64,000 bases of DNA from Candidatus Yanofskybacteria bacterium (GTDB lineage Bacteria > Patescibacteriota > Minisyncoccia > 2-02-FULL-40-12 > GWA2-44-9), in the NCBI GenBank assembly GCA_016185505.1, contig JACPNL010000019.1, positions 2,885 through 66,884 of the forward strand, read 5' to 3'. The notes beneath the pieces are model-generated. The model saw nothing but the letters and a program-made list of their open reading frames with translations, made no database searches and was not told the DNA's origin. Positions 1 through 14,844 of this stretch are shown piece by piece. The stretch's first letter is position 1. Each line of letters begins with the position of its first letter. The translations under genes and the position numbers were made by a program.

Positions 1-84
1 TTTGTTGAGATTATTAAACCATATATATTGCCATCAATGAGATACAAGTTGGGAATATTAGGAACACAATTGCCTAAAAAGTAA
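1..84 (+). CDS. 3' end of an intron-encoded LAGLIDADG homing endonuclease (partial; starts upstream of the window)
   Basis: Frame-1 translation FVEIIKPYILPSMRYKLGILGTQLPKK* matches the C-terminal ...IGPYIIPSMIYKL... of the two LAGLIDADG ORFs at 518 and 1422, implying a further upstream intron in the 23S gene. Confidence 0.45.
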   Translation, partial: FVEIIKPYILPSMRYKLGILGTQLPKK

Positions 85-414
85 TGGAGGCGTTCATCAA
101 GGTCGGCTAGCTTCGGATGGACATCGAAGCGATAGCGTAAAGGCAAAAGCCGGCTTAACTGCAAGGCGGATGTGCCGCGCTTCGAAGGGCAACCTTCGAA
201 GATGTGTGGAGAGGGCCTTCTTATGCTGGATTATGAGGTGCTTGCACTTCGTAGCTTTAGCGAAGAAGTGAGATGCGAAAGCAGGACTTAGTGAACCGAC
301 TCTAGCTCGTAGGAGCGGAGAAGATCATCAGATAAAAGCTACCCCGGGGATAACAGGCTGGTACCACCCGAGCGTTCCTAGCGACGGTGGTGTTCGGCAC
401 CTCGATGTCGGCTC

Positions 415-1296
415 AAATTGGGCCGTACTCGAAGTAATTCGAGTTGGTAAGTTGGATTCCAATTTGCAACTTCAGCTAAAAACGGTGAAGTCATAATAAA
501 GTCAACCCAGATGTGTTATGATAATACCGTGGGAAGTAAGAGAAACTTTATACAGTATGCTATTATCACAAAGACAAACAGATATACTCATTGGTACAAT
601 TTTAGGCGACGGCCATTTGGAGAAAAATGGCCACGGTGTTCGCTTAAAAGTGGGTCATGGTAAAAAACAAACAGAATATACTTATTGGAAATATTTTGAA
701 ATGAAAAACTTAACTCCAAGTCCGCCACGATCAGTTAAAGAGTTTCATAAAAGCAGAAAAATGTTTGATGAAAGTGTGCATTTCGCAACTTTTTCTGACC
801 TCGAGCTAGTAAAATGGCGTGATTTATTCTATGAAAGTGGCGTTAAAGCAATACCCAAAAATATAAGCGATATTCTAAGGTCGCCCTTATCGTTAGCAGT
901 TTGGTATATGGACGATGGCTATAAGAGAAATGACTGCAATGCCTTAAGAATAAGTACAGATTCTTTTTCTCTTAATGATCATCACTTATTGGTCAATTGT
1001 TTGGAAAAGAATTTTGAAATTAACGCCCAGATCCATAAAAAAGACAAGACCAATAATATTTATATACCCAATAAATTTACTAAAAAGTTTTGTGATATTG
1101 TTAGACCATATATTGTTGATAGTTTATTGTATAAAGTTTCTCTTGCCCCGTAACGACTTTGTTCTTAATGAACAGGATAATTAACGATGAAGCGAAAGTC
1201 GATGGTTAATTATAAAAGGCTGACACCCCCTAATTAAATTAAACTTAGTGGGTGAATGTATAGTCTACACTTCTAGTGATAGAAGATTATTGTGCG
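415..1296 (+). other. Group I intron 1 in 23S rRNA (after GATGTCGGCTC) carrying a LAGLIDADG ORF
   Basis: Exon sequence breaks at 414 and resumes at ~1299. Intron core motifs are shared with the other introns: AATACCGTGGGAAGT, CCCCGTAACGAC, TATAGTCTACAC...TAGTGATA. Boundaries are approximate. Confidence 0.6.
518..1153 (+). CDS. LAGLIDADG homing endonuclease (two-motif type)
   Basis: Motifs LIGTILGDGHL and AVWYMDDGYK. The ORF lies inside 23S intron 1. Confidence 0.8.
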   Translation: MIIPWEVRETLYSMLLSQRQTDILIGTILGDGHLEKNGHGVRLKVGHGKKQTEYTYWKYFEMKNLTPSPPRSVKEFHKSRKMFDESVHFATFSDLELVKWRDLFYESGVKAIPKNISDILRSPLSLAVWYMDDGYKRNDCNALRISTDSFSLNDHHLLVNCLEKNFEINAQIHKKDKTNNIYIPNKFTKKFCDIVRPYIVDSLLYKVSLAP

Positions 1297-1329
1297 GCTT
1301 ATCCTGGGGGTGAAGAAGCTCCCAAGGGT

Positions 1330-2187
1330 GAAAGAACAAACTCGCCCATCTAGAAGAGATTCTAGATAAAATAACCGACTAATAACGGTGGAGTCGTAAT
1401 TAAATTTATGTTAAAATTAATATGAATTTAAACGATAATACCGTGGGAAGTTTAAGGCAAAAAATAGATTTAAGCGATAGGGAAATGAGTGTTTTAATCG
1501 GCACCATTCTTGGCGATGCATATATTGAACAGTATCCCAAAGATGCTCGGATTAGTATTATGCATTCACTAAAACAAAAAGAATTTGTCGAATGGAAATA
1601 CAAAGAGTTGGGAAGATTCGTGAAAATGAAACCAATGCAGTCAGAATACTTTGATCCCAGATATGGTAAGAAGTATTTTTGGCGGAGGTTTCAGACTAGA
1701 AGATTTCCGGAATTTAAGGAATTGGCCGATATTTTCTACGTTGGAAAAACAAAAATTATTCCCCGTACTATCAGCCAAATATTAACACATCCATTAGCTC
1801 TCGCGGTTTGGTATATGGATGATGGCGGAAGAAGAAAGGACTGTCACGGAATGTTTTTGAACACATTAAGCTATTCAAAACAAGAACAGATAGTGCTACA
1901 AAAATGTCTCCTAAAAAACTTTGGAATTCACACAAGAATCCATTGGGTTACTGATGGATTCAGATTGTATATCCCAACGGCAGATGCTAAAAAATTCAGC
2001 ACTCTTATCGGTCCATATATTATCCCATCCATGATCTATAAATTACCTTATAACCCCGTAACGACTGAATCCGCCGGAATATGGCGGAGGAGATAGATTG
2101 AAATAATATCTATCAAACGTCGGGCCCGTCTCTCATGGAGAGCGGAGCAAGGTATAGTCTGTGCTCTTAGTAATAAGAGAAACACAC
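1330..2187 (+). other. Group I intron 2 in 23S rRNA (after CCCAAGGGT) carrying a LAGLIDADG ORF
   Basis: Exon breaks at ~1329 and resumes at ~2188 (GGCTGTTCGCC). Contains CGACTAATAACGGTGGAGTC and the TATAGTCTGTGCTCTTAGTAATAAGAG core. Confidence 0.55.
1422..2096 (+). CDS. LAGLIDADG homing endonuclease (two-motif type)
   Basis: Motifs LIGTILGDAYIE and AVWYMDDGGRR. Paralogous to the ORF at 518. Confidence 0.8.
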   Translation: MNLNDNTVGSLRQKIDLSDREMSVLIGTILGDAYIEQYPKDARISIMHSLKQKEFVEWKYKELGRFVKMKPMQSEYFDPRYGKKYFWRRFQTRRFPEFKELADIFYVGKTKIIPRTISQILTHPLALAVWYMDDGGRRKDCHGMFLNTLSYSKQEQIVLQKCLLKNFGIHTRIHWVTDGFRLYIPTADAKKFSTLIGPYIIPSMIYKLPYNPVTTESAGIWRRR

Positions 2188-2237
2188 GTTGGCTGTTCGC
2201 CAATTAAAAAGCTACGCGAGCTGGGTTCAGACCGTCC

Positions 2238-3018
2238 GATTACAAATCATCGGGGCGGCTCTGTCAAGTAATTGACAGATGTTAAATCGACTCATATCGG
2301 AGAAGTCCTATTGCTTCAAAACCAACCGAAGCAAGGGTAATTCCGAGGGAAGTCTTCCGTTCAAATTTTTGGAAAAGAAAAACCGCGATTATTTACTCGC
2401 GGGCGTGGTCGGCGATGGGCACTGTGCAATAGAAAGCATTATGCCACTCATATAAGCACCATTCCACGAAGAAGAAGGCAGTAAAGAAGAAGGCAATGAT
2501 AGATGGAAAAAATCTGCAGCATTCTCTGCGTCTTTATCAGATAAAGAAAAACTAGCCAGCTCTTTTTTGTCGATACTGATAGTAAATTTATAGTTCATCT
2601 TTCGTTGCCTATTGTAAATATTAAGAACTTGAATCAGGGTATTAAATTATTTAAATTTTGTCAATTAAAAATTGACTCCAAAAATTTGAACGGAATGACC
2701 CCGTAGAGACTTGTTGAGTTAAACTCAACGGACGAAATCTATAAATTTCGTAATATGTCGATCAACCATTGTTTTGCATTGGGAAACTCTAAATTCAAAA
2801 CCCTAAACTCTAAACAATATCAAATATCAAAATCTAAAACTCAAAACTTTTAAGATTTTAAATTTGTAATTTGTTTAGAAATTAGAAATTAGGATTTAGA
2901 AATTCCACTGCTTTGCAGTGGCTGGTGGTATAGTCCATACTCTTAGTAATAAGAGATGTTCAGAGTTCAGATTTCAGATATCGGACATCCGATATCTGAT
3001 TTCCGATGTCTGATTATG
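2238..3018 (+). other. Group I intron 3 in 23S rRNA, ORF-less and filled with low-complexity repeats
   Basis: Exon breaks after GACCGTC (2237) and resumes at CGTGAGACAG (3019). Shares the TATAGTCCATACTCTTAGTAATAAGAG core, but no LAGLIDADG ORF remains; instead it holds AT-rich tandem repeats and the palindrome CAGATATCGGACATCCGATATCTG. Confidence 0.5.
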
Positions 3019-3081
3019 CGTGAGACAGGTTGGTCCATATCTGGTGCGGGCGTTAATACTTGAGAGGAGTTGTCCCTAGTA

Positions 3082-3965
3082 AAGTATTGCTACTTCACGG
3101 AGTAATCCGTGATGACAACGCGACTAATAACGGTGGAATCTTAATATTTCTGGATCTGTTGATAGCCATAATTTCAATCGGTCCGTAAATTGTGGTACAA
3201 TTTACTTGAGGACCAGAAACTATTAAGACAATACCGTGGGAAGTCGATCTAAAATTGATCTAGCGTATATGGCCGGTTTTCTTGATGGAGACGGAAGCTT
3301 GATGTTCCAACTCAAGAAACGCAAAGACGGCAAAAAGAAATGGCGGTTTATGTGCACTGTCTGTTTTTATCAAGACAGCAGGCACGATAAGACACTTCAT
3401 TGGATAAGAAGCAAGCTAAATATTGGCTATGTGTCTAAACGCAATGATGGAATGTCAGAGTTGAGAGTAAATGGGTTTAAACAAATCCGAGATATTCTCA
3501 ATGACTTATTGCCATTTGTGAAGTTTAAAAGAGTCCAGGCAAATGCTATGCATAAAGCCACGACCCTTTTGAGCAAAAAGCATAGTGGTCAACTTAATAA
3601 AAATGAACTTATTAGATTAGTTGATTATATTCTAGAAATTCAGAAGAAGAACTATGTAACAAAACGCAAGAAAGGCAGAAAAGAGTTATTATCAATTTTG
3701 GGTTTGACCCCGTAACGACTTGTTCTCGCCAACGGCGGGACGGATAGAAGTTTTTTAGCTTCTATAATATGTCGCTGACCAATGGAGGTTGGAGATTAGA
3801 GATTGGATGTTGGATTTATTCTAACTTCTCATTTCTAACCTCTAACTTCCGTTGGTTAAAGATATAGTCTACACCCGTAGTGATACGGGATAATCAATTC
3901 GCAATTCGCGGCATTCGCATATCATTTGTAGATTTGCATTATGTTGCGAGCGGAGAGAGCATGTG
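3082..3965 (+). other. Group I intron 4 in 23S rRNA (at CCTAGTA^CGAGAGGACC) carrying a LAGLIDADG ORF
   Basis: Exon breaks at ~3081 and resumes at 3966 (ACGAGAGGACCGGG). Contains CGCGACTAATAACGGTGGAATC, CCCCGTAACGAC and a CTAACYTC repeat block at 3781-3860. Confidence 0.55.
3236..3715 (+). CDS. LAGLIDADG homing endonuclease (single-motif type)
   Basis: Motif LAYMAGFLDGDGSLMF. Starts directly after the conserved intron motif ATACCGTGGGAAGT (GTG start, or ATG at 3269). Confidence 0.7.
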   Translation: MGSRSKIDLAYMAGFLDGDGSLMFQLKKRKDGKKKWRFMCTVCFYQDSRHDKTLHWIRSKLNIGYVSKRNDGMSELRVNGFKQIRDILNDLLPFVKFKRVQANAMHKATTLLSKKHSGQLNKNELIRLVDYILEIQKKNYVTKRKKGRKELLSILGLTP

Positions 3966-4242
3966 ACGAGAGGACCGGGATGAACGAACCTCTGGTCTGC
4001 CAGCTGTTCTGCCAAGAGCAGCGCTGGGTAGCTATGTTTGGTTCTGATAAGCGCTGAAAGCATATAAGCGCGAAGCAGGCCTCAAGATTAGGTATCGGGA
4101 CGCAAGTCCCAAAATTTCCTTGTAGATGACGAGGTTGATAGGGCTTAGGTGTAAGCGCCGTGAGGCGTTGAGCCGAGAGCTACTAATAAATTTACTTTGA
4201 GTAATTTGTCGCTCCTCACTTTTGTTCGGAGCTCTTCCTACA

Positions 4243-4338
4243 AATTACGAATTTTTACAAATATACGAATGGGTTGAAAAATTTTAATTTAATCCTTCCT
4301 TCAGTATTCGTAAATTCGTACTGATTAGTAATTCGTAG
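4243..4338. repeat. TACGAAT / ATTCGTA repeat block in the 23S-5S spacer
   Basis: ATTACGAATTTTTACAAATATACGAATGGG ... TATTCGTAAATTCGTACTGATTAGTAATTCGTAG. The same motif family recurs at 23991, 28553 and 59885. Confidence 0.5.
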
Positions 4339-4460
4339 TAAAGGAGCCGCGAGCGGAAGCGAGGGGCGACGGGTGATTTCGGTATAAAATTAAGTTTTTT
4401 CCCCAAGAGTGAAACGAAGAGGGTGCGTTCCACCCCTTTCTGGAAAATAAAAATTATTGG

Positions 4461-4574
4461 CTTGGTGGCAATGCTGACGTTGTACTACCTGATCCCATTC
4501 CGAACTCAGAAGTAAAAGACGTCAAGGCCCATGATAGTCAGCATTAGCTGGCGAAAGTAGGTAGCCGCCAGACC
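4461..4574 (+). rRNA. rrf: 5S rRNA
   Basis: CTTGGTGGCAATGCTGACG...CCCATTCCGAACTCAGAAGTAAAAGACG...GGCGAAAGTAGGTAGCCGCCAGAC aligns with the bacterial 5S consensus. It is flanked by the inverted repeats CTGGAAAATAAAAATTATTGG / CCAATAATTTTTATTTTTATCCAG, which would form a processing stem. Confidence 0.8.
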
Positions 4575-4671: not shown

Positions 4672-4806
4672 CCCCATTCCGAACCCGGAAGCGAAGTCCC
4701 GCACCAAATCCGCCCCCTTTCTGAATGGCGGTCAGCGGAAAAATTTGGTGCGGGATGAAATTCTCCAAGGCCCATGATAGTCGGCATCAGCCGGCGAAAG
4801 TAGTCC
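4672..4806 (+). other. Partial second 5S-like segment interrupted by a ~60-nt hairpin insertion
   Basis: CCCCATTCCGAACCCGGAAGCGAAGTCCCGCACC [insert with stem CCCGCACCAAAT/ATTTGGTGCGGG] AAGGCCCATGATAGTCGGCATCAGCCGGCGAAAGTAG parallels the 5S at 4461-4574 but lacks helix I. Confidence 0.4.
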
Positions 4807-4936
4807 CGATTTTCTTCCTGTCAAAGGCGGATTAGAAAATCGAGGATCCCCGATTTGTCATCTGCGCTTTGCGCAGGACAAATCGGGAGTAGCTGCCCTA
4901 TACTGACCGCGACTTTTTAGTTGTGTACATTAGTTG

Positions 4937-4966
4937 TTGACAGAAATTGAGTTGTGGATATAATTT
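4937..4966 (+). promoter_or_regulatory. Sigma70-like promoter (TTGACA-N17-ATAATT) plus an AAGGAGGA RBS at 4988
   Basis: GTTGACAGAAATTGAGTTGTGGATATAATTTG, followed by the RBS AAGGAGGA 6 nt before the ATG at 4999. Confidence 0.4.
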
Positions 4967-4998
4967 GCTAAAGATCCTTGAATTAACAAGGAGGATTC

Positions 4999-5274
4999 AT
5001 GGAAGAAAGGGCAGATCAGAGAGTTTCGGTAGAATTGCCGAAAGAGGTTGTCTTAAATTTCCGGGACCAATGTCATCGCGGCGCTCATCCCTGGAAGAAG
5101 ATTTTCGGGAGAATCCAGGGTTTCATGATGGCTGAAGTAGAAGTAGTGCGCTGGTGTCCAATTTGTGGCTCAGTTGTGATTGATCTTGAATGCGACGACA
5201 GAATCCAGCCGGGTGCTATCAGAAAGATTGAATCTTCGCAAATTTCCAGTCGAATGTCATACAAGGGCACATAG
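4999..5274 (+). CDS. Hypothetical small protein with a CxxC zinc-ribbon-like motif
   Basis: 91-aa ORF with a good RBS and the CPICGSV...C motif. No family recognised. Confidence 0.45.
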   Translation: MEERADQRVSVELPKEVVLNFRDQCHRGAHPWKKIFGRIQGFMMAEVEVVRWCPICGSVVIDLECDDRIQPGAIRKIESSQISSRMSYKGT

Positions 5275-5307
5275 CCCTTTTTTGTTTGAGTATGTTAGAA
5301 TAATGCT

Positions 5308-6114
5308 ATGGAACAACGGACTCAAAAGCAGTTAATTATCGGCCTTATTTTTGTTTTGATCATCGGCGTTATCGGCTATGGATTTGTTGACTATTTCTTT
5401 CTTACCGAGCCGACCTGTTTTGATAATGTCCAGAATGGTAAGGAAGATGGAGTTGATTGCGGCCTTTTTGCTTGCGGAGTTACCTGTGAACCAGCGATAG
5501 TACCTCTAAGCATAGTATCCCAGAAACTGATAGAAGTAAGGCCGGGGGATTACGACTTTATCGCCCAGATCCATAATCCTAACTCTTTGTTAGGCGCGTC
5601 AAGGGTCAGATATGAGCTGAATCTTGGCGCGGTTAAGACAACGGGCGCGTTTTTCATCCTTCCTGGACAAACTCGTTTTGTAATAATTCCGGGCATTCAT
5701 GCCGACGGCGGCGTATTAAGTGGTGCTTCTATTGATATCACTGAAGCGGAATGGCAGAAGGTTGAATCGTTTGAAAATATAAATTTTCCTGTCCAGAGAA
5801 AGAACTATACGGTGGTAGATAGGAACGGCGTTTTCAGCGAGCTTGAGGCGGTAATATTGAACAGTTCCGATTTTGATTTTGATAAAGTTGAAGTGGGAGT
5901 TATATTATTCTCGACTGGAGGAGAAATTGTCGCCGTCAATAGAACCGATATACGCACTTTTCTTTCCAGGACCGAAAGATCTTTCAAGGTAAGCTGGCCG
6001 GCAGAACTTCCAGAAAGTGTAAGGCAAGACATTGAGGTCTTAACTAATGTTTTCGAGAATGCTAATTTTATCCGGCGTTATGGGACACAGGAGAGGTTTC
6101 AAAAATACTACTAA
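5308..6114 (+). CDS. Hypothetical membrane-anchored protein
   Basis: 268 aa with an N-terminal TM helix LIIGLIFVLIIGVIGYGF. No recognised family. Confidence 0.5.
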   Translation: MEQRTQKQLIIGLIFVLIIGVIGYGFVDYFFLTEPTCFDNVQNGKEDGVDCGLFACGVTCEPAIVPLSIVSQKLIEVRPGDYDFIAQIHNPNSLLGASRVRYELNLGAVKTTGAFFILPGQTRFVIIPGIHADGGVLSGASIDITEAEWQKVESFENINFPVQRKNYTVVDRNGVFSELEAVILNSSDFDFDKVEVGVILFSTGGEIVAVNRTDIRTFLSRTERSFKVSWPAELPESVRQDIEVLTNVFENANFIRRYGTQERFQKYY

Positions 6115-6294: not shown

Positions 6295-7392
6295 ATGGCA
6301 AACTTTTCAAAAAACATAAGGTCTTATTTCCGCGAAGTAGATACTCCGCTCTTTATCGCAGTGGTAGCAATTTCTTTATTGGGTGCTTTGAATTTGTGGG
6401 GTATTGCCGGCGCCGATAGTTTGCTTTTTAAAAAACAACTCGTTTTTATTGCCATCGGCTTGACTGTAATGTTGGCGCTGTCTTTCTTTAACTACAGGTA
6501 TCTTAAGAATTATTCCTTGCCGGTGCTGGGCTTTTACTTCGTTTCCGTATTCTTATTGCTTTTGACTTTTTATTCCCAGTCGGTACGGGGAGTCAACTCT
6601 TGGATAATTTTGGGCAGTTTGACGTTCGAGCCGGTGGAATTGGCCAAGTTGATGTTGATCGTGTTGATGGCCAAGTACTTTTCCCAGAGACACGTTCATA
6701 TAAATGATTTCCGCCATATAGTCGTGGCCGGAATATATTTCTCTTTGCCTTTTGCTATAATCTTTCTTCAGCCGGATCTTGGTTCTTCCATTATATTCTT
6801 GGCTATCTGGCTGGGAATGCTTATGGCTGCCGGTATAAATAAGCGCCACTTGTTTCTGCTCGTCTCCGTCGGGGTTTTGGTAGGATATACAGCATGGCTG
6901 TTTGCTCTCCAGCCGTATCAGAAGACGAGGATAACGTCATTTCTGGATCCCTATAACGATCCAAAAGGGAGCGGTTATAATATCATTCAGTCAAAAATAG
7001 CGATCGGTTCCGGATATTTTTTCGGTAACGGTTTTGGCCAAGGTTCTCAAAGTAAGCATGGTTTCTTGCCGGAGCCACACAATGATTTCGCCTTTGCCGC
7101 CTTTACGGAGCAATTCGGCCTTATGGGCATAAGCGCGGTTATGGTGATGGTTCTAATCATCATTTCCCGTATTCTTTATATCGGGTCTAGAGTCATTTCT
7201 AATTTCGGTAAGCTTTTTTCCATAGGCCTTGCCGTGTTCATTGGCTCCCACGTATTCATAAGCGCCGGGGTCAACATAGGGTTGCTTCCGGTAACAGGGC
7301 TTTCCTTTTCGTTCTTAAGTTACGGCGGTAGCCACCTTTTGTCACTTATGGTAGGACTGGGAATACTACAGAGCATCAAACGTTATGGGTAA
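6295..7392 (+). CDS. ftsW: SEDS-family peptidoglycan glycosyltransferase FtsW/RodA
   Basis: 10-TM protein with the SEDS-family motifs LQPDLGS and GYNIIQSKIAIGSGYFFGNGFGQGSQSKHGFLPEPHNDFAFAAFTEQFGLMG. Confidence 0.85.
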   Translation: MANFSKNIRSYFREVDTPLFIAVVAISLLGALNLWGIAGADSLLFKKQLVFIAIGLTVMLALSFFNYRYLKNYSLPVLGFYFVSVFLLLLTFYSQSVRGVNSWIILGSLTFEPVELAKLMLIVLMAKYFSQRHVHINDFRHIVVAGIYFSLPFAIIFLQPDLGSSIIFLAIWLGMLMAAGINKRHLFLLVSVGVLVGYTAWLFALQPYQKTRITSFLDPYNDPKGSGYNIIQSKIAIGSGYFFGNGFGQGSQSKHGFLPEPHNDFAFAAFTEQFGLMGISAVMVMVLIIISRILYIGSRVISNFGKLFSIGLAVFIGSHVFISAGVNIGLLPVTGLSFSFLSYGGSHLLSLMVGLGILQSIKRYG

Positions 7393-7859: not shown

Positions 7860-10800
7860 ATGTCCGCAACTGTCCGCGTATTTATAATGCGGAAACTATT
7901 CTCAAAATATGGAGCTACCCATTTGGAATCAGACGCGCCTAACCTTGTTCAAGTGCAACTTGATTCTTATAATTGGTTTTTACGCCACGGGCTCAAAGAA
8001 TTGCTGAAGGAGGTTTCGCCCGTTGAGGATTGGACCGGCAAAGAACTTGAGCTTCGTTTTTTGGATTACAAGCTGGACGAACCTAAATACGACGAAAGAA
8101 CATCCATAGATAAGAACATTACCTTTGAGGCGCCACTGAAGGTAAAAGTCGGTCTCGTCAATAAAAGTACGGGCCAGGAAAGGGAGCAGGAACTTTTTAT
8201 CGCGGATTTTCCATTAATGACCCAAAGGGGGACTTTCATCATAAATGGAATTGAAAGGGTGGTTATATCCCAGCTTATCAGAAGCCCGGGGTCATTTTTT
8301 TCATTATCCAGATCCAGCCGGTATAAGAGATTTTTTGGGGCCAAGTTAATTCCGTCCAGAGGCGCCTGGCTTGAATTTGAGACGGAGTATAACGGTGTTA
8401 TCTCGGTGAGGATAGACAGAAAAAGAAAGGTGGCCGCTACCGCGCTTTTGCGCGCGTTCGGCATTAAAGATGACGAAGAAATAAAAAAACTTTTTGCCGA
8501 TGTTGACACTGATCCAAATGTAAAATATATATTGGCGACTATTCTTCAGGACCCGTCTTCTAATGAAGAGGAAGGTCTGATTGAACTTTATAAGCGTATC
8601 AGGCCTGGAGATCCAGCTACTCCTGACAACGCCAGGCAGATGATCCACAATCTTTTTTTCAACCCATCCAGGTACGATTTGTCTAAGGTCGGCCGCTTTC
8701 GACTAAATAAAAGATTCAACGAGAGCTTGGATATAGAAAAAGCCGAGAATCGGGTGTTAAGGCCCAAGGACATAGTGAATCTTCTGCGGGAGATAATTCG
8801 TTTGAACAACGATCCGTCGTCGGAACCGGATAACATAGATCATCTTGGCAACAGAAGGGTCAAAACATTGGGGGAATTACTTCAGGATCGTTTAAGGATC
8901 GCTTTTGCCAGGATGGAAAGAAATATAAAAGACAGGATGAGTACGATGGATCTGGCAATGGTTTTGCCGTCTCAACTTATAAACGCGCGACCTTTTGTCG
9001 CGGCCTTGAAAGAATTTTTTTCGTCAGGGCAACTATCTCAATTTATGGATCAAGACAATCCTCTTTCAGAGCTTGAGCACAAGAGACGTCTTTCCGCGCT
9101 GGGCCCCGGCGGTCTTACCAGAGAAAGAGCCAGTTTTGAAGTTCGCGATGTCCATCCGTCACACTATGGGAGAATTTGTCCTATAGCTACGCCCGAGGGC
9201 CCTAATATAGGTCTTGTGGGACATCTTGCTTTGCATTCAAAGATCTCTGATCTTGGTTTCATACTCACTCCGTATAGAAAGGTTGCAAAGGGCAGGGTTA
9301 CCGATGAGATACTATATATGGATGCCATAGAGGAGGAGAGGTATAACATTGCTTCAGCCGGCGCCTCGATGGATAAAGAAGGCAACCTTACCGGCGACAA
9401 GGTAACGGCCAGGATCAAAGGAGAGCCAGGCACGGCCGAACCGAAAAACATCGATTATATAGACGTTTCTCCGAAGCAGCAATTCTCGGTATCCACATCT
9501 CTCATTCCTTTTCTTGAACATGATGACGCCAACAGGGCGTTGATGGGTTCTAATATGCAGAGGCAAGCCGTCCCTTTGATAAAACCAGAATCGCCCTATG
9601 TTGGTACGGGTCTTGAATCGAAAGTTGCCGTTGACTCGGGCGTTATGGTTGTTGCACCGGATAACGGAACTGTAAAAGAAGCGGATGCTTCTCATATCGT
9701 CCTTGAATCCGATAAAAAGAAATACGAGTTCAAACTTCTTAAATTCGCCAAGTCAAATAAATTCACATCAATAAATCAGAGGCCGATTGTCTCCAGGGGC
9801 GACAAGGTCAAGAAGGGAGACGTTCTTGCCGACGGTCCGTCAACAGAGAACGGAGAATTGGCCCTTGGCGCAAATCTCGTTGTCGCGTATATGTCTTTCG
9901 AAGGAGCAAATTTTGAGGACGCCATCGTTATCTCCGAGCGTCTGATCAAAGAGGATGTATTTTCAAGCATCCATATCGAGGACTATGTGAGCGACGTGAG
10001 AGAGACTAAGCTTGGGCCCGAGTTAACCACTTATGATATTCCTAATGTCGCTATGGAGCGATTGAATGATCTGGATCCTGACGGAGTGGTGAGAATAGGC
10101 GCCGAGGTCAGATCGCAGGATATTCTGGTGGGCAAGATTTCTCCGAAAGGAGAAAGCGACCTTACGGCCGAAGAGCGATTGCTGCGAGCCATATTCGGTG
10201 AAAAATCCAGAGACGTTAAAGATACTTCGCTTCGTCTTGATTACGGAAAGCAGGGCCGGGTCGTGGGCGTGAAAACATTCTCCAGAGATGAAGGGGACAA
10301 GCTGGATGTTGGGGTTATTAAAAAGACCCAGGTTTCTGTGGCGCAGTTGAGAAAGGTTCAAATAGGAGACAAGTTGGCTGGACGTCACGGCAATAAGGGA
10401 GTCATATCGGTCATACTTCCTGAAGAAGATATGCCGTTTATGGAGGACGGCACTCCGGTTGATATCGTTTTATCGCCTCTTGGCATTATTTCACGTATGA
10501 ATATCGGCCAGGTGCTTGAGGCTCACTTGGGCATGGCGGCCAAAAAACTTGAATATAAAGCCGCGACTCCTTCTATGGCCGGTCCGAGCGAGGATATGAT
10601 AATGGAAGAGTTAAAGAAAGCCGGCTTTCCCGTTGATGGAAAGGTCCAGCTTTACGATGGAAAGACGGGACTGTCTTTCGCGCAAAGATCCACTGTGGGC
10701 ATTACCTACTTTATGAAGTTGAGCCATATGGTTGAAGACAAGCTCCACATGAGGTCTATTGGTCCATATTCTCTTATCACCCAACAGCCGCTTGGAGGCA

Positions 10801-11045
10801 AAGCTCAGTTCGGAGGGCAGAGATTCGGAGAAATGGAGGTCTGGGCACTTGAAGGTTATGGCGCCTCTCATACTTTGCAAGAGATGTTGACCATCAAATC
10901 AGACGATGTTTTAGGCCGAGCGAAGACATATGAATCAATAGTGAACGGAGAAGAAATACACGCCCCCCACTTGCCGGAGTCGTTCAAGGTTTTGCTGTCG
11001 GAGATAAAGGGGTTAGGGTTGAATGTAGAATTGATTGAAAAGTAG
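7860..11045 (+). CDS. rpoB: DNA-directed RNA polymerase subunit beta
   Basis: Full-length RpoB homology (e.g. GDKLAGRHGNKGVIS, NIGQVLE). The start may instead be the ATG at 7887. Confidence 0.95.
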   Translation: MSATVRVFIMRKLFSKYGATHLESDAPNLVQVQLDSYNWFLRHGLKELLKEVSPVEDWTGKELELRFLDYKLDEPKYDERTSIDKNITFEAPLKVKVGLVNKSTGQEREQELFIADFPLMTQRGTFIINGIERVVISQLIRSPGSFFSLSRSSRYKRFFGAKLIPSRGAWLEFETEYNGVISVRIDRKRKVAATALLRAFGIKDDEEIKKLFADVDTDPNVKYILATILQDPSSNEEEGLIELYKRIRPGDPATPDNARQMIHNLFFNPSRYDLSKVGRFRLNKRFNESLDIEKAENRVLRPKDIVNLLREIIRLNNDPSSEPDNIDHLGNRRVKTLGELLQDRLRIAFARMERNIKDRMSTMDLAMVLPSQLINARPFVAALKEFFSSGQLSQFMDQDNPLSELEHKRRLSALGPGGLTRERASFEVRDVHPSHYGRICPIATPEGPNIGLVGHLALHSKISDLGFILTPYRKVAKGRVTDEILYMDAIEEERYNIASAGASMDKEGNLTGDKVTARIKGEPGTAEPKNIDYIDVSPKQQFSVSTSLIPFLEHDDANRALMGSNMQRQAVPLIKPESPYVGTGLESKVAVDSGVMVVAPDNGTVKEADASHIVLESDKKKYEFKLLKFAKSNKFTSINQRPIVSRGDKVKKGDVLADGPSTENGELALGANLVVAYMSFEGANFEDAIVISERLIKEDVFSSIHIEDYVSDVRETKLGPELTTYDIPNVAMERLNDLDPDGVVRIGAEVRSQDILVGKISPKGESDLTAEERLLRAIFGEKSRDVKDTSLRLDYGKQGRVVGVKTFSRDEGDKLDVGVIKKTQVSVAQLRKVQIGDKLAGRHGNKGVISVILPEEDMPFMEDGTPVDIVLSPLGIISRMNIGQVLEAHLGMAAKKLEYKAATPSMAGPSEDMIMEELKKAGFPVDGKVQLYDGKTGLSFAQRSTVGITYFMKLSHMVEDKLHMRSIGPYSLITQQPLGGKAQFGGQRFGEMEVWALEGYGASHTLQEMLTIKSDDVLGRAKTYESIVNGEEIHAPHLPESFKVLLSEIKGLGLNVELIEK

Positions 11046-11190
11046 TTTCAACCAATTCAACTAAATGTAAAATGCAAATATCAAAAATCAAAATGACAAT
11101 TCAAAATGTAAAGAATAATCAGAAATCAGAAAATTTTAAATTTTATACTGTCATTTTACACTTTGATTTTTAAATTTTAAATTTCTTATC
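11046..11190. repeat. AAAATGTAAAATGACA-family AT-rich inverted repeat element in the rpoB-rpoC spacer
   Basis: AAATGTAAAATGCAAATATCAAAAATCAAAATGACAATTCAAAATGTAAAG...TATACTGTCATTTTACACTTTGATTTTTAAATT. Related copies lie at 32043-32190 and, in frame, inside uvrC at 33541-33600. Confidence 0.5.
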
Positions 11191-14100
11191 GTGGATTTAT
11201 CCAGCATAAAACTTAAAATCGCGTCTCCCGAGGATATTTTGTCTTGGTCATACGGTGAGGTCACGAAGCCCGAGACCATCAACTACCGAACCCAGAAGCC
11301 GGAAAGGGAAGGTCTTTTTTCAGAGGCCATTTTCGGGCCGGTCAAGGATTGGGAATGCTATTGCGGAAAATATAAAAGGATAAGGTACAAGGGTATCATC
11401 TGCGACAGATGCGGTGTTGAGGTTACCAGATCCATAGTCAGACGAGAAAGAATGGGTCACATTAAACTGGCCGCGCCGGTGGCTCATATTTGGTTTCTGC
11501 GGGGCGTTCCTTCCAAGATAGCCACCGTTTTAGGCGCCAGTTTACAGGAACTTGAAAAGGTCGTCTACTTCGCGAGCTATATAATAATGAAAGCGAATGA
11601 AGACCTGAAAGCGGAAGCGATGAAAAGGATTGAGAACGAGTTTAAGACAAAGATCAAGAATTCTAAAAATGAAGCCGAACAAGAGAGTCTGAAAGAACAA
11701 AAAGATAGGGAGAAGAATAATTTAAGGAATTTAAGAAAATATCAGATTGTTTCGGAGCTTGATTTCCGCGACCTGTCTCTAAAATACGGGGAGGTGTTTG
11801 AGGCGGGCATAGGCGCGGAGGCGATAAAGCGTTTGCTTGAAGAGATAAACTTCGAAGACCTTGTTGCCGAAATAGAAAGCGAAGTAAAAAGCGAATCGAA
11901 TCCATTAGAGCAAAGAAAGCTGACAAGACGCTTGAGATTCATAAAAGGAATGAAGAAAGCGGAGATAAGGCCCGAGTGGATGATTTTGAGCACATTGCCG
12001 GTCATCCCCCCCGCTTTGAGGCCGATGGTACCTCTGGACGGTGGCCGCTACGCGACGTCAGATCTTAATGACCTATACAGGAGGGTGATCAACAGAAACA
12101 ACCGCTTGAAGCATTTGCTCGAACTTAAGGCTCCGGAAGTCATTACAAAGAACGAAAAGAGAATGCTTCAGGAGTCGGTTGACGCTCTTATAGACAATGC
12201 AATGAGAAGGGGGGGAGGAGTTACTACTGCTGCTTCAACGGGGCAGAAAAGGGCGCTCCGCTCTCTTGCCGATATGTTAAAAGGCAAACAGGGAAGATTC
12301 AGGCAGAACTTGCTTGGAAAACGAGTTGATTACTCCGGTCGTTCGGTTATCGTTATTGGTCCGGAACTTGGTATTGCCGAGTGCGGTCTTCCCAAAAGAA
12401 TGGCTTTGGAACTTTTCAAGCCGTTCGTGATAGGGATTTTGATAAGAAAAGAATTGGCTCACAACATTAAATCGGCGAGCCGTCTGATAGAGCAGGAAAC
12501 ACCGGATGTCTGGACGGCATTGGAAGAAGCGATGGAAGGCAAGCTGGTATTGCTCAATCGCGCGCCGACATTGCATCGTCTGTCTGTTCAGGCATTTAAG
12601 CCGACACTAATAGAAGGTAAAGCGATCAAAATTCCCGCTATGCCCGTGCATGCTTTTAATGCTGACTTTGATGGTGACCAGATGGCGGTTCACTTGCCGC
12701 TTACGAACGAAGCTCAAAAAGAAGCCAAGGACTTGATGCTATCCAGCCACGGCATACTGAAGCCGGCCACGGGCGAACCCGTCGCTATACCGAGCCACGA
12801 TATGTCATTTGGAATTTATTTTATTACTAATATGCTTGAGAACGCCAAAGGCGAAGGCAAGATATTTTCTTCCCGGTATGAAGCGCTTCTTGCTCATGAG
12901 AACGAGTTTATTGATCTTCGGGCAAAGATAAAAATACCGAACCCCGACTATAAAGAGCCAGGCGACAGAGATTCCCGGCTCCGCACGGGAACCTTATCCG
13001 AGCAAGGTTCACGCCGAGGAACTTCGGCGGGAATCGCCTCAGGTAGCGACGCGGAGAAGATCATTGAGACAACCGTAGGCCGCGTAATATTCAACAAAAT
13101 ATTGCCTAAGGAATTTCGATATGTGAATAAAACCCTCACTAAACCCGACTTAAAAGCTATCAGCTCCGATATATGGGACGAATACGGCGAGGAAGTAATG
13201 GTGGATTTCTTAGACAAAGTTAAAAACCTTGGCTTTCACTATGCAACGGTATCCGGCGTCTCCTGGAGTATGAGTGATTTGAGAGTTCCTCAAGAAAAGC
13301 AGCAAATCATAGAAGAGGCCGACAGGGTTATAGAAGAGAACAGGCACTTGTACGAGAACGGCTTGTTGACAGACCATGAAAGAAAGTCAAAAGCGATTGA
13401 AGTATGGAACAATGCTAAAGCCAAACTTTCTGCGTTGGTAAAAAAAGAGTTGGCTATTCAGGACCCGGTTTATATGATAGTTGATTCCAGGGCCAGAGGC
13501 AGTTGGGGGCCAATCGACCAAATGATGGGCATGAGAGGTATCGTGGTTAATCCTTCAGGTGAACTCATAGAACTGCCTATCAGGAATTCTTTGAAAGAAG
13601 GGATGACATCTCTTGAGTACTTCATTTCTACTCACGGCGCCAGAAAAGGTCTAGTGGACACGGCTCTCAAAACAGCCGAGGCCGGCTACCTCACCCGTAA
13701 ATTGGTTGATGTGGCGCAAAGCGTGGTTGTGCTGGAAGATGATTGTAAAGATAAAGAAGGATATGTGGTTTACGCTGAAGACAAAAAAATAAACGGGGAA
13801 ACACTGGGCCGTCGTTTGAAAGGTCGGGTAGTGATGGAGGACTTAATAGATAAGAATGGCGAAGTTATCGTAAAAAAGGGTAAAATGGTTGACAAAGAAG
13901 CCGCGGTCAAAATAGATGAAGCCGGGATAGACCAAGCGAGGATAAGATCTCTTGTAAGATGTAAGGCGCTTAATGGTGTTTGTCGTATGTGTTATGGCCA
14001 CGATCTGTCAAAGGGCGAACTTATAAATATCGGAGAGGCCGTCGGTATTGTCACCGCGCAAGCGATCGGAGAGCCGGGGACCCAGCTTACAATGAGAACG

Positions 14101-14844
14101 TTTCACACCGGAGGTATTGCCGGCGGAGCGGACATTACTATGGGTCTTCCCAGGGTTGTGGAGATATTTGAAGCGCGGTCTCCGCAATTCAAAGCGCTGG
14201 TAGCTGATGTCGATGGTCAGGTTTTGTCGGTAGAGGATACTGGCAAACAGAAGGTTATAACCGTAGAAGTTAAGGATACCCATGATAAAAAGGAATTCGT
14301 AATTGCTCCCAATTTAGCTGTATCTGTCGCCAAAGGAGATCTCGTAGCTGTTGGCCAGCAGTTAAGTGAGGGTCATATTGATCTTAAAGAATTATTCGCG
14401 ACGACCAATGATATTGATGTTGTCGCCAGATATATAATCAGAGAAGTTCAGGCCATTTACTTCCCAACGGGCGACAGCATAAACGACAAACACGTGGAGC
14501 TGATAGTAAGACAGATGTTCTCAAGGGTTAAGGTATTGGATCCCGGCGATACCGATCTTTTGTCCGGCGACATAATTGAAAAGAGGCGTCTCTGGCAGGA
14601 GAACGAGAAAGCAAAACAGAGAAAGAAAATCGAGGCAACGGCAGAGCAGCTGCTCTTGGGTATGACCAAGGTTTCGCTGACCACGGACAGTTTCCTTTCG
14701 GCCGCGTCGTTCCAGGAGACGGCAAGGGTGCTCATAGACAGCGCTACCGTCGGCAAAGAGGACTTGCTCAAAGGCCTCAAAGAAAACGTCATCATCGGCC
14801 GTCTGATACCGGCAGGGACGGGACTGGGAGCAGAATTGGAGTAG
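11191..14844 (+). CDS. rpoC: DNA-directed RNA polymerase subunit beta prime
   Basis: NADFDGDQMAVH catalytic motif and full-length RpoC homology. GTG start. Confidence 0.95.
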   Translation: MDLSSIKLKIASPEDILSWSYGEVTKPETINYRTQKPEREGLFSEAIFGPVKDWECYCGKYKRIRYKGIICDRCGVEVTRSIVRRERMGHIKLAAPVAHIWFLRGVPSKIATVLGASLQELEKVVYFASYIIMKANEDLKAEAMKRIENEFKTKIKNSKNEAEQESLKEQKDREKNNLRNLRKYQIVSELDFRDLSLKYGEVFEAGIGAEAIKRLLEEINFEDLVAEIESEVKSESNPLEQRKLTRRLRFIKGMKKAEIRPEWMILSTLPVIPPALRPMVPLDGGRYATSDLNDLYRRVINRNNRLKHLLELKAPEVITKNEKRMLQESVDALIDNAMRRGGGVTTAASTGQKRALRSLADMLKGKQGRFRQNLLGKRVDYSGRSVIVIGPELGIAECGLPKRMALELFKPFVIGILIRKELAHNIKSASRLIEQETPDVWTALEEAMEGKLVLLNRAPTLHRLSVQAFKPTLIEGKAIKIPAMPVHAFNADFDGDQMAVHLPLTNEAQKEAKDLMLSSHGILKPATGEPVAIPSHDMSFGIYFITNMLENAKGEGKIFSSRYEALLAHENEFIDLRAKIKIPNPDYKEPGDRDSRLRTGTLSEQGSRRGTSAGIASGSDAEKIIETTVGRVIFNKILPKEFRYVNKTLTKPDLKAISSDIWDEYGEEVMVDFLDKVKNLGFHYATVSGVSWSMSDLRVPQEKQQIIEEADRVIEENRHLYENGLLTDHERKSKAIEVWNNAKAKLSALVKKELAIQDPVYMIVDSRARGSWGPIDQMMGMRGIVVNPSGELIELPIRNSLKEGMTSLEYFISTHGARKGLVDTALKTAEAGYLTRKLVDVAQSVVVLEDDCKDKEGYVVYAEDKKINGETLGRRLKGRVVMEDLIDKNGEVIVKKGKMVDKEAAVKIDEAGIDQARIRSLVRCKALNGVCRMCYGHDLSKGELINIGEAVGIVTAQAIGEPGTQLTMRTFHTGGIAGGADITMGLPRVVEIFEARSPQFKALVADVDGQVLSVEDTGKQKVITVEVKDTHDKKEFVIAPNLAVSVAKGDLVAVGQQLSEGHIDLKELFATTNDIDVVARYIIREVQAIYFPTGDSINDKHVELIVRQMFSRVKVLDPGDTDLLSGDIIEKRRLWQENEKAKQRKKIEATAEQLLLGMTKVSLTTDSFLSAASFQETARVLIDSATVGKEDLLKGLKENVIIGRLIPAGTGLGAELE

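Follow-up and report, generated by a model that had tools for sequence, protein, structure and literature searches.

The window analysed here is a stretch of 64,000 nucleotides (nt) of contig JACPNL010000019.1, from a Candidatus Yanofskybacteria bacterium, and its positions 1-4193 are the 3′ end of a bacterial 23S ribosomal RNA (rRNA) gene, corresponding to Escherichia coli 2263-2904. The Rfam bacterial large-subunit (LSU) model, which was used for rRNA detection, matches positions 1-448 (model 2101-2636) and 3947-4193 (model 2652-2912), the last of these with a score of 168.6 bits, and Rfam also places a 5S gene at 4461-4573. The 3′ quarter of the 23S gene is cut by five introns, which follow E. 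coli positions 2262, 2511, 2546, 2593 and 2656 and are referred to in that order as I0 to I4 (Table 1). E. coli K-12 rrlB served as the alignment reference, with landmarks at their standard numbers; E. coli numbering is used throughout, and an insertion site is written as L plus the number of the position that it follows. The evidence described below makes it very probable that this quarter of a single 23S gene holds five mobile group I introns.

Exon borders were set by the rrlB alignment together with the junctions of homologues inserted at the same sites. The joined exons are colinear with E. coli 2438-2702 at 80% identity, with one 1-nt gap in a variable stem. The initial annotation, made from the letters of this DNA, had described exon blocks separated by insertions; its coordinates lie within 1-3 nt of the refined borders, and the comparison with a 23S reference that it proposed yielded a contiguous alignment through domains V-VI. 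Joining the exons restores GAUGUCGGCUC, the A-loop hairpin GGCUGUUCGCC, GGGUUCAGACCGUCGUGAGACAG and the sarcin-ricin loop AGUACGAGAGGACC, the last of which is interrupted by I4, and the universally conserved sequences of the peptidyl-transferase centre, the A-loop and the sarcin-ricin loop are all kept. For I1, I2 and I4, the reconstructed intron-less junctions read GATGTCGGCT/CGGCTTATCC, CCCAAGGGT/TTGGCTGTTC and GTCCCTAGT/ACGAGAGGAC. The L2511 junction is ambiguous from the window alone because GGCT stands on both sides. It was settled by same-site homologues, whose 3′ exons begin CATCTTATCC or CATCGCATCC, where that of the window begins CGGCTTATCC. A first alignment had placed a 5-nt deletion in helix 90 at this junction; this was rejected, since the 3′ exons of the homologues start with CGGCTT and nothing is deleted.

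All four complete introns follow a 5′ exon that ends in U, and each of the five ends in a G (72, 1294, 2188, 3018 and 3965), as do the same-site homologues. Conserved sequence blocks recur once in each of the four complete introns and are absent from the rest of the 64 kb: AATWCCGWGGGAAGT is found at 523, 1437, 2339 and 3230, and CCCCGTARMGACT at 1146, 2054, 2699 and 3708, each with a chance expectation of 0, and RTATAGTCY is found at 1258, 2152, 2928 and 3862, with a chance expectation of 0.7. The blocks correspond to the classical group I elements. Element P, nCGAC-UAAUA-ACGGU-GAAG, comprises the 5′ strand of P3, J3/4, the 5′ strand of P4 and J4/5; element Q, AAU-ACCGU-GGG-AAGU, comprises J5/4, the 3′ strand of P4 and the 5′ strand of P6; element R, CCC-CGUAAC-GACU, comprises the 3′ strand of P6, J6/7 and the 5′ strand of P7; and element S, GUAU-AGUC, comprises J8/7 and the 3′ strand of P7. 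The initial annotation had thus been right that the introns have blocks in common and that these are RNA-level motifs, although its block CGACTAATAACGGTGG(A/G)ATC has an exact match in the L2656 intron alone and variants in the remaining three. A permuted core with CGACTAATAACGGTGG as the R element was considered and rejected: its CGAC pairs with the downstream GUCG (P3) and its ACGGU with the ACCGU of the next block (P4), with covariation.

Table 1. Exons, introns, open reading frames (ORFs) and hairpins of the 23S rRNA gene. Positions are those of the window; IGS, internal guide sequence; ωG, terminal G of the intron; L6 and L8, loops of P6 and P8.
Feature	Position	Strand	Details
I0, 3′ end of L2262 intron	..72 (last 72 nt only)	+	Ends G72; homologue comparison
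23S exon	73-413	+	E. coli 2263-2511; Rfam LSU match, rrlB alignment
I1 at L2511, 881 nt	414-1294	+	IGS 421-425; P3 473-476/1219-1222; P4 482-486/526-530; P6 531-533/1146-1148; P7 1155-1158/1262-1265; ωG 1294
I1 ORF, 211 amino acids (aa), in L6	518-1153	+	Pfam LAGLIDADG_2, E 3.9e-38, 131.5 bits; I-SceI-like
23S exon, 35 nt	1295-1329	+	E. coli 2512-2546; homologue junctions, alignment
I2 at L2546, 859 nt	1330-2188	+	IGS 1344-1347; P3 1375-1379/2119-2123; P4 1385-1389/1440-1444; P6 1445-1447/2054-2056; P7 2063-2066/2156-2159; ωG 2188
I2 ORF, 224 aa, in L6	1422-2096	+	Pfam LAGLIDADG_2, E 1.5e-36, 126.3 bits; I-SceI-like
23S exon, 47 nt, with A-loop	2189-2235	+	E. coli 2547-2593; homologue junctions, alignment
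I3 at L2593, 783 nt	2236-3018	+	IGS 2255-2258; P3 2286-2291/2757-2762; P4 2297-2301/2342-2346; P6 2347-2349/2699-2701; P7 2708-2711/2932-2935; ωG 3018
I3 L6, probable slot of a decayed endonuclease gene	2350-2698	+	Closed by 17-bp inverted repeat 2356-2372/2679-2695
I3 L8, long imperfect hairpin of short repeats, ~130 nt	about 2780-2912	+	-31.8 kcal/mol, z -5.1; between P3′ and P7′
I3 hairpin after P9, 55 nt	2958-3012	+	Fold
23S exon, 62 nt	3019-3080	+	E. coli 2594-2656; homologue junctions, alignment
I4 at L2656, 885 nt	3081-3965	+	IGS 3089-3092; P3 3120-3124/3771-3775; P4 3130-3134/3233-3237; P6 3238-3240/3708-3710; P7 3717-3720/3866-3869; ωG 3965
I4 ORF, 159 aa, in L6	3236-3715	+	Pfam LAGLIDADG_1, E 1.1e-9, 39.6 bits; I-CreI/I-MsoI-like, single-motif
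I4 hairpins analogous to those of I3	L8 3783-3853; after P9 3893-3958	+	Fold
Last 23S exon	3966-~4193	+	E. coli 2657 to about 2900; Rfam LSU

The four complete introns have a common architecture, P1-P2-P3-P4-P5-P6(ORF)-P7-P7.1-P7.2-P3′-P8-P7′-P9, in which P7 is followed by the hairpins P7.1 and P7.2, then by the 3′ strand of P3 (GUCGn), P8, P7′ and a P9 hairpin with a GNRA loop; a short P9.0 pairing ends at the terminal G. The core pairing order P3-P4-P6-P7-P3′-P7′, a pseudoknot, is present in all four, and single-sequence folds place P2, P5, P7.1, P7.2, P8 and P9 where they are expected in each. The guide sequences GGCCG (I1), GCCC (I2), GCGG (I3) and GCUA (I4) are each complementary to their own exon, the splice site falling at a U·G pair; examples of guide and exon, the exon ending at the splice site, are GGGUGC with GCACCU, GGCCG with CGGCU, GCCC with GGGU, GCGG with CCGU and GCUA with UAGU. 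Among 149 introns, the guide helix averages 5.2 bp with its own exon and 3.2 bp when exons are swapped between sites.

Further support for the fold came from covariation in an alignment of 45 introns from 11 sites, with L6 trimmed and a hand-drawn structure projected from I2. In this alignment 79.2% of cells are paired, as against 63.9% after column shuffling and 38-45% when the partners are slid by 1-3 columns. The covariation score is 0.404 (0.168 shuffled), a value reached in 0 of 500 shuffles, and 626 cells carry double changes, compared with 257 when shuffled. Covariation supports P2, P3, P4, P5, P6a, P9 and P9.0: all five pairs of P2 covary (91% of cells paired), as do four of the five pairs of P3 (96%), with UA, CG, GC and AU at one pair and GC and AU at others; P4 (99.6%) contains 11 AU-to-UA swaps; and P6a, P9 and P9.0 are paired in 85%, 94% and 89% of cells. 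RNAalifold, run blind on the same alignment, recovered P2, P3, P4, P5, P6, P6a and P9, with compensatory changes in 29 of 38 pairs. The core elements of all four window introns fit this family consensus, compensatory changes included. The claim of the initial annotation that the inserts are group I introns is therefore upheld by a P1-P9 fold backed by covariation, and a sub-threshold Rfam Intron_gpI match adds support.

Several observations weigh against this interpretation. P6 and P7 are invariant among the 45 introns and contribute no evidence from covariation; they are uninformative in this respect because the search patterns fixed them. P7.1, P7.2 and P8 differ in length from site to site, are poorly aligned (48-69% paired) and rest mainly on single-sequence folds. 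The P1 helices are short, at 4-5 bp, in all four complete introns, and I3 and I4 might fold more slowly because of the large hairpins inserted in their L8 and after their P9. Moreover, no match to the Rfam model RF00028 (Intron_gpI) attains its gathering score of 50 bits. The search with Rfam group I models, recommended in the initial annotation, gave sub-threshold matches of 28.9, 24.1 and 14.4 bits, the best of them (E 1.6e-4) at 3712-3890 in I4. Such scores are expected, since L6 inserts of 350-630 nt split the core.

A different explanation is that the insertions are intervening sequences (IVSs) that are excised, for example by RNase III, without religation, leaving a fragmented 23S rRNA. 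Excision of this kind is known for IVSs of bacterial 23S rRNA and has been considered for some insertions in the Candidate Phyla Radiation (CPR) (PMC11270868), and a hairpin insertion of ~90 nt within an exon of this gene (positions 181-270) resembles an excised IVS element. An IVS would, however, have no reason to keep a complete, covarying group I core, a U before the 5′ border and a G at the 3′ border, and a guide matched to its exon, as four of the inserts do; in addition, fragmentation would leave free pieces of 35, 47 and 62 nt in the peptidyl-transferase centre. Excision without religation is therefore very unlikely for the five introns. Located near E. coli 2369/2370, the insertion at 181-270 forms two hairpins, and the related contigs L234 and L190 lack it; it resembles an expansion segment or an IVS of the RNase III type, not an intron.

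Two hairpins between P7 and P3′ are a trait of subgroup IA and occur in all four complete introns, although these hairpins are only 48-55% paired in the cross-site alignment. In subgroup IA introns such as phage T4 td and Twort orf142-I2, P7.1 and P7.2 likewise lie between the 5′ strand of P7 and P3′, and the ORF likewise lies in the P6 loop. By contrast, a complete relative of the L2262 intron lacks P7.1 and P7.2 and carries its ORF after P9; a place in subgroup IA is tentative for the four introns.

Three of the complete introns hold an endonuclease ORF with a Pfam match above the family cut-off (25 bits for LAGLIDADG_2 and 23.1 bits for LAGLIDADG_1). Because the ORF sits in the P6 loop, element Q lies directly before and element R directly after each ORF, in varying frames, and the reading frames overlap the ribozyme core. 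The GTG start of the I4 ORF lies inside element Q, and the stop codons of the I1 and I4 ORFs are the UAA of J6/7. The I2 ORF continues through P6′ and P7 into P7.1, as do the ORFs of the L2546 homologues, most of them close to 219 aa in length. The I1 ORF is listed from its first ATG; the real start may be ATG 557. In comparisons with solved structures, the I1 ORF can be aligned with I-SceI along almost its entire length (E 1.2e-14), suggesting that its product is a monomeric two-motif enzyme. The I4 ORF matches the monomers I-CvuI, I-CreI and I-MsoI (E 1e-13 to 1e-11), and it matches single-chain or fused I-CreI/I-MsoI constructs most strongly (E 1e-27 and 1e-25). Given this resemblance, its product is probably a homodimeric single-motif enzyme.

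The intron at L2262 enters the window with its last 72 nt, all of which, by homology, form the end of an I-SceI-like LAGLIDADG ORF. Positions 1-180 are 92-93% identical to contigs L162 and L174, which hold complete L2262 introns, and the 27-aa peptide encoded at 1-84 shares 71% identity with the C-terminal end of a 217-aa LAGLIDADG_2 ORF in L174 (E 7.5e-47). The L2262 intron of L174 has a guide sequence, a P2 with the AGUAAU loop of the family, P3, P4, a P6 without an ORF, P7, P3′, P8, P7′ (GAUAUAGUC) and P9, after which its ORF runs to the 3′ splice site. The ending aaca(n)aauug/CCUAAA, with the slash at the splice site, is common to many L2262 loci, and the window junction reads aattg/CCTAAA. 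The stop codon of the ORF lies in the conserved 3′ exon, as TAA 82-84 in the window and as the TAA of CC/TAA in L174. These homologues bear out a fifth, upstream intron, as the initial annotation had proposed, and with them its set of LAGLIDADG ORFs, one of them partial: three have Pfam matches and the I0 peptide is assigned by homology. The endonuclease gene of this lineage thus sits after P9 and not in L6; in L174, where it is on the reverse strand, its stop lies at about 2590-2600.

The L2593 intron, I3, differs from its neighbours in the window. The L6 stretch is closed by a perfect 17-bp inverted repeat, CCGTTCAAATTTTTGGA and TCCAAAAATTTGAACGG, and contains no intact ORF between 2350 and 2698, nor do peptides from this stretch match any Pfam family. 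When 92 intron endonucleases from the collected loci were compared with it by tblastn (search space of 380 nt), one weak match was found beyond the region encoded by the core: FLEKKNRDYLLAGVVGDGHCAIES (2372-2443, followed by a stop; best E 1e-4), which aligns with the first LAGLIDADG motif of intron endonucleases such as LIGTILGDGHLE. Intact L2593 homologues among the collected loci encode I-CreI-like proteins of 151-174 aa with the motif AGFLDGDGS at the matching position. With moderate confidence, the L6 stretch is therefore probably a decayed endonuclease gene that retains a remnant of a LAGLIDADG motif. The endonuclease gene of L2593 introns sits in a peripheral loop, and the Chlamydomonas Cr.LSU/I-CreI intron is a chloroplast L2593 group I intron with an I-CreI-family gene; compared with L2593 introns that carry such a gene, I3 appears to hold a decayed remnant and has long hairpins in L8 and after P9. 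The initial annotation had correctly read I3 as having lost its ORF and kept its core, but the repeats that it placed in the ORF slot are the hairpins of L8 and of the stretch after P9.

These features might instead indicate that the introns are ribozyme relics that do not self-splice, either because the gene is a dead rRNA copy or because splicing depends wholly on the host or a maturase. The lost endonuclease gene and large insertions of I3 are consistent with such a state, as are the short P1 helices, and maturase help is known for a 23S intron of Thermotoga, according to work cited within PMC3984707. A dead copy is nevertheless hard to reconcile with exons that keep the universally conserved sequences of the peptidyl-transferase centre, A-loop and sarcin-ricin loop, and the core of all four introns fits the family consensus with compensatory changes. 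Moreover, the 16S and 23S genes of CPR bacteria are usually present in one copy per genome (PMC11270868). The probability that the introns are relics is accordingly very small.

Homologues were collected in two scans. Contigs from one genome per species were scanned with GRYAATWCCGWGGGAAGT, giving at least 119 stretches; most of the matches listed are metagenome-assembled genomes (MAGs) of Patescibacteria/CPR, and a minority are labelled Gammaproteobacteria, Omnitrophota, Actinomycetes and others. A few listed matches that lack the rest of the core look like chance matches. Metagenome contigs were scanned with CCAAGGGT, a gap of 92-122 nt and AATWCCGWGGGAAG, giving 112 stretches, of which roughly 25-30 are L2546 introns like I2 and most others are L2584 introns; some lie at L2575 and L2593, and a few are non-rRNA matches. 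Among the matches listed, 169 introns (149 distinct sequences) could be bounded by exon alignment and the rule of a U before and a terminal G within the intron. They occupy 13 sites (1951, 2262, 2449, 2473, 2500, 2504, 2511, 2546, 2575, 2584, 2593, 2604 and 2656), with forms containing an ORF and forms lacking one at most well-sampled sites. L2262, L2511 and L2546 are common in the scanned collections. In many metagenome contigs, among them L133, L134 and L139, an L2584 intron is followed by the 9-nt exon TCAAACCGT and then by an L2593 intron; the recurrence of this exon in many contigs implies that micro-exons between group I introns are a frequent feature of these rRNA genes.

Comparison of these introns bears on how the array arose. 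In the alignment of 45 introns, the window introns are 47-52% identical to one another, while their best same-site matches elsewhere are 63-85% identical, with medians of 57-71%. Over their full lengths, same-site homologues of I1 are 83-91% identical (L045 and L141), a homologue of I2 is up to 90% identical (L174), and many L2656 homologues of I4 are 70-76% identical. For each intron, the closest kin are therefore same-site introns of other organisms and not its neighbours in the gene, as expected of old site-specific lineages under homing. Judged from these sequence comparisons, the four introns are not recent copies spread within this gene.

The least probable explanation, that the array is an assembly chimera of intron-bearing alleles from different strains, gains some colour from the probable origin of the sequence in a metagenome assembly, in which short conserved exons of 35-62 nt could mislead the assembler, and from exact-match look-ups in metagenome contigs that gave only short contigs over 4755-6000 and none for the first 53 nt of the window, but the same five intron sites are occupied in the independent contig L190, which aligns continuously with positions 271-2236 (77% identity), and L174, L234 and L153 carry overlapping sets of intron sites, which argues against a chimera.

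The five introns would thus be removed along the established group I pathway, from which the following scheme is derived; self-splicing, exon ligation and the activity and specificity of the endonucleases are all inferred from the analysis. The whole 23S gene would first be transcribed. Each intron would then fold its P3-P9 core, and its guide would anneal to the last 4-5 nt of the 5′ exon, the splice site being marked by a U·G pair. The 5′ splice site would be attacked by an external guanosine that P7 has bound; the terminal G of the intron would then take the same pocket, and the freed 5′ exon would attack the 3′ splice site. After five such reactions domain V-VI would be continuous again, and with it the peptidyl-transferase ring, the A-loop and the sarcin-ricin loop. 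The genes for the LAGLIDADG proteins lie in L6 or, at L2262, after P9, and these proteins would cut the intron-less ribosomal DNA (rDNA) site, leading to the intron being copied into it. Homing of this kind would give each site its own lineage of intron and endonuclease across organisms. The L2593 intron would represent a later stage of the homing cycle, in which the endonuclease gene has decayed and the ribozyme persists.

Long imperfect hairpins of short repeats like those in L8 and after P9 also occur in the 23S-5S spacer (4204-4350), and all five have z-scores of -2.8 to -8.2. About 45 nt of the hairpin at 3893-3958 recur in the tail of the L2593 intron of L174 (95% identity) and in L215 (91%), which hints at a small mobile or recombining hairpin module. 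On the minus strand, a 69-aa ORF (2598-2389) lies inside L6 of I3, and a terminator-like hairpin with a T-run lies at 2402-2383 on the same strand. The region 2383-2660 has no Pfam match and no promoter-like site by consensus scan, and the ORF is probably spurious. It is unlikely, though conceivable, that a separate class of small mobile hairpin modules has colonised the 23S-5S spacer as well as the peripheral parts of the introns, namely L8 and the tail that follows P9, and that L6 of I3 hosts an antisense 69-aa gene with its own terminator. If this were true, the introns would offer places in an rRNA gene where further mobile or coding elements can safely insert and nest.

Insertions of this kind have been described before. 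Tsurumaki et al. (2024) surveyed 348 CPR 23S genes and found insertions in 82%, with up to 16 per gene; 45% of the 23S insertions pass the Rfam group I model, the group I sites cluster in the 3′ region, and nearly all annotated ORFs encode LAGLIDADG or GIY-YIG proteins (PMC11270868). The sites include 2593 and 2657, one enzyme, I-ShaI, cuts its own insertion site, and no insertions were found in CPR 5S genes; the survey states that it confirms an earlier study (PMC11270868). As in that survey, the insertions here are many, 3′-biased and group-I-like and encode LAGLIDADG_1 or LAGLIDADG_2 proteins. The surveyed proteins are mostly single-domain LAGLIDADG; of the four ORFs here, three are instead I-SceI-like (LAGLIDADG_2), and nothing essential differs. 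The initial annotation was justified in regarding multi-intron rRNA genes as typical of CPR bacteria, since the nearest relatives in sequence are CPR MAGs and contigs from groundwater metagenomes and the survey agrees, but four insertions within ~3.5 kb, which it had considered notable, are unexceptional beside up to 16 per gene. Searching the literature for the site names L2546, L2511, L2656 and L2262 brought up nothing but papers on other subjects, and the positions of 23IS9-11 are given only in figures of PMC11270868. At L2593, Haugen et al. (2007) described bacterial (cyanobacterial) introns in which P2 and P5 are short and P7.1/P7.2 are present (PMC1995217), and I3 shares the site and these features with the bacterial and chloroplast introns. 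The proteins of I1, I2 and the I0 homologue are relatives of I-SceI, encoded by the omega intron of yeast mitochondria at L2449 (I1 against I-SceI, E 1e-14), and all of these are group I introns of LSU rRNA near the peptidyl-transferase centre. The omega intron differs in its site (2449 instead of 2511, 2546 and 2262), the host here is bacterial and the protein similarity is distant.

Downstream of the 5S gene, a second 5S-like sequence lies at 4673-4897. Three blocks of it, separated by hairpin insertions at 4692-4755 and 4804-4888, correspond to 5S positions 34-109; the alignment score is 93 against a maximum of 59 in 200 shuffles, and one stem carries a compensatory change from GUCAGC..GCUGGC to GUCGGC..GCCGGC. 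No counterpart of the 5′ third of 5S was found, and Rfam does not detect the locus. About 3 kb downstream of the rRNA operon are rpoB (1061 aa) and rpoC (1217 aa), at 7860-14844, which would be useful for placing the organism; a rodA/ftsW-like gene (6295-7392) and ORFs of unknown function lie between the operon and rpoB.

The array is a well-resolved new instance of a phenomenon already published for CPR bacteria, and current understanding is therefore unchanged. Its exact splice junctions enable correct rRNA annotation and phylogeny for such genomes, and the four conserved core blocks provide a simple search key for introns of this type. The I-SceI-like and I-CreI-like proteins are, from their sequences, candidates for new meganuclease specificities directed at highly conserved rDNA. 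The locus is a fully bounded case in which mobile ribozymes separate the 35-, 47- and 62-nt pieces that encode the catalytic centre of the rRNA, and it places side by side what would be three stages of the homing cycle: introns with intact endonuclease genes, one whose gene has probably decayed, and relatives elsewhere that have no ORF.

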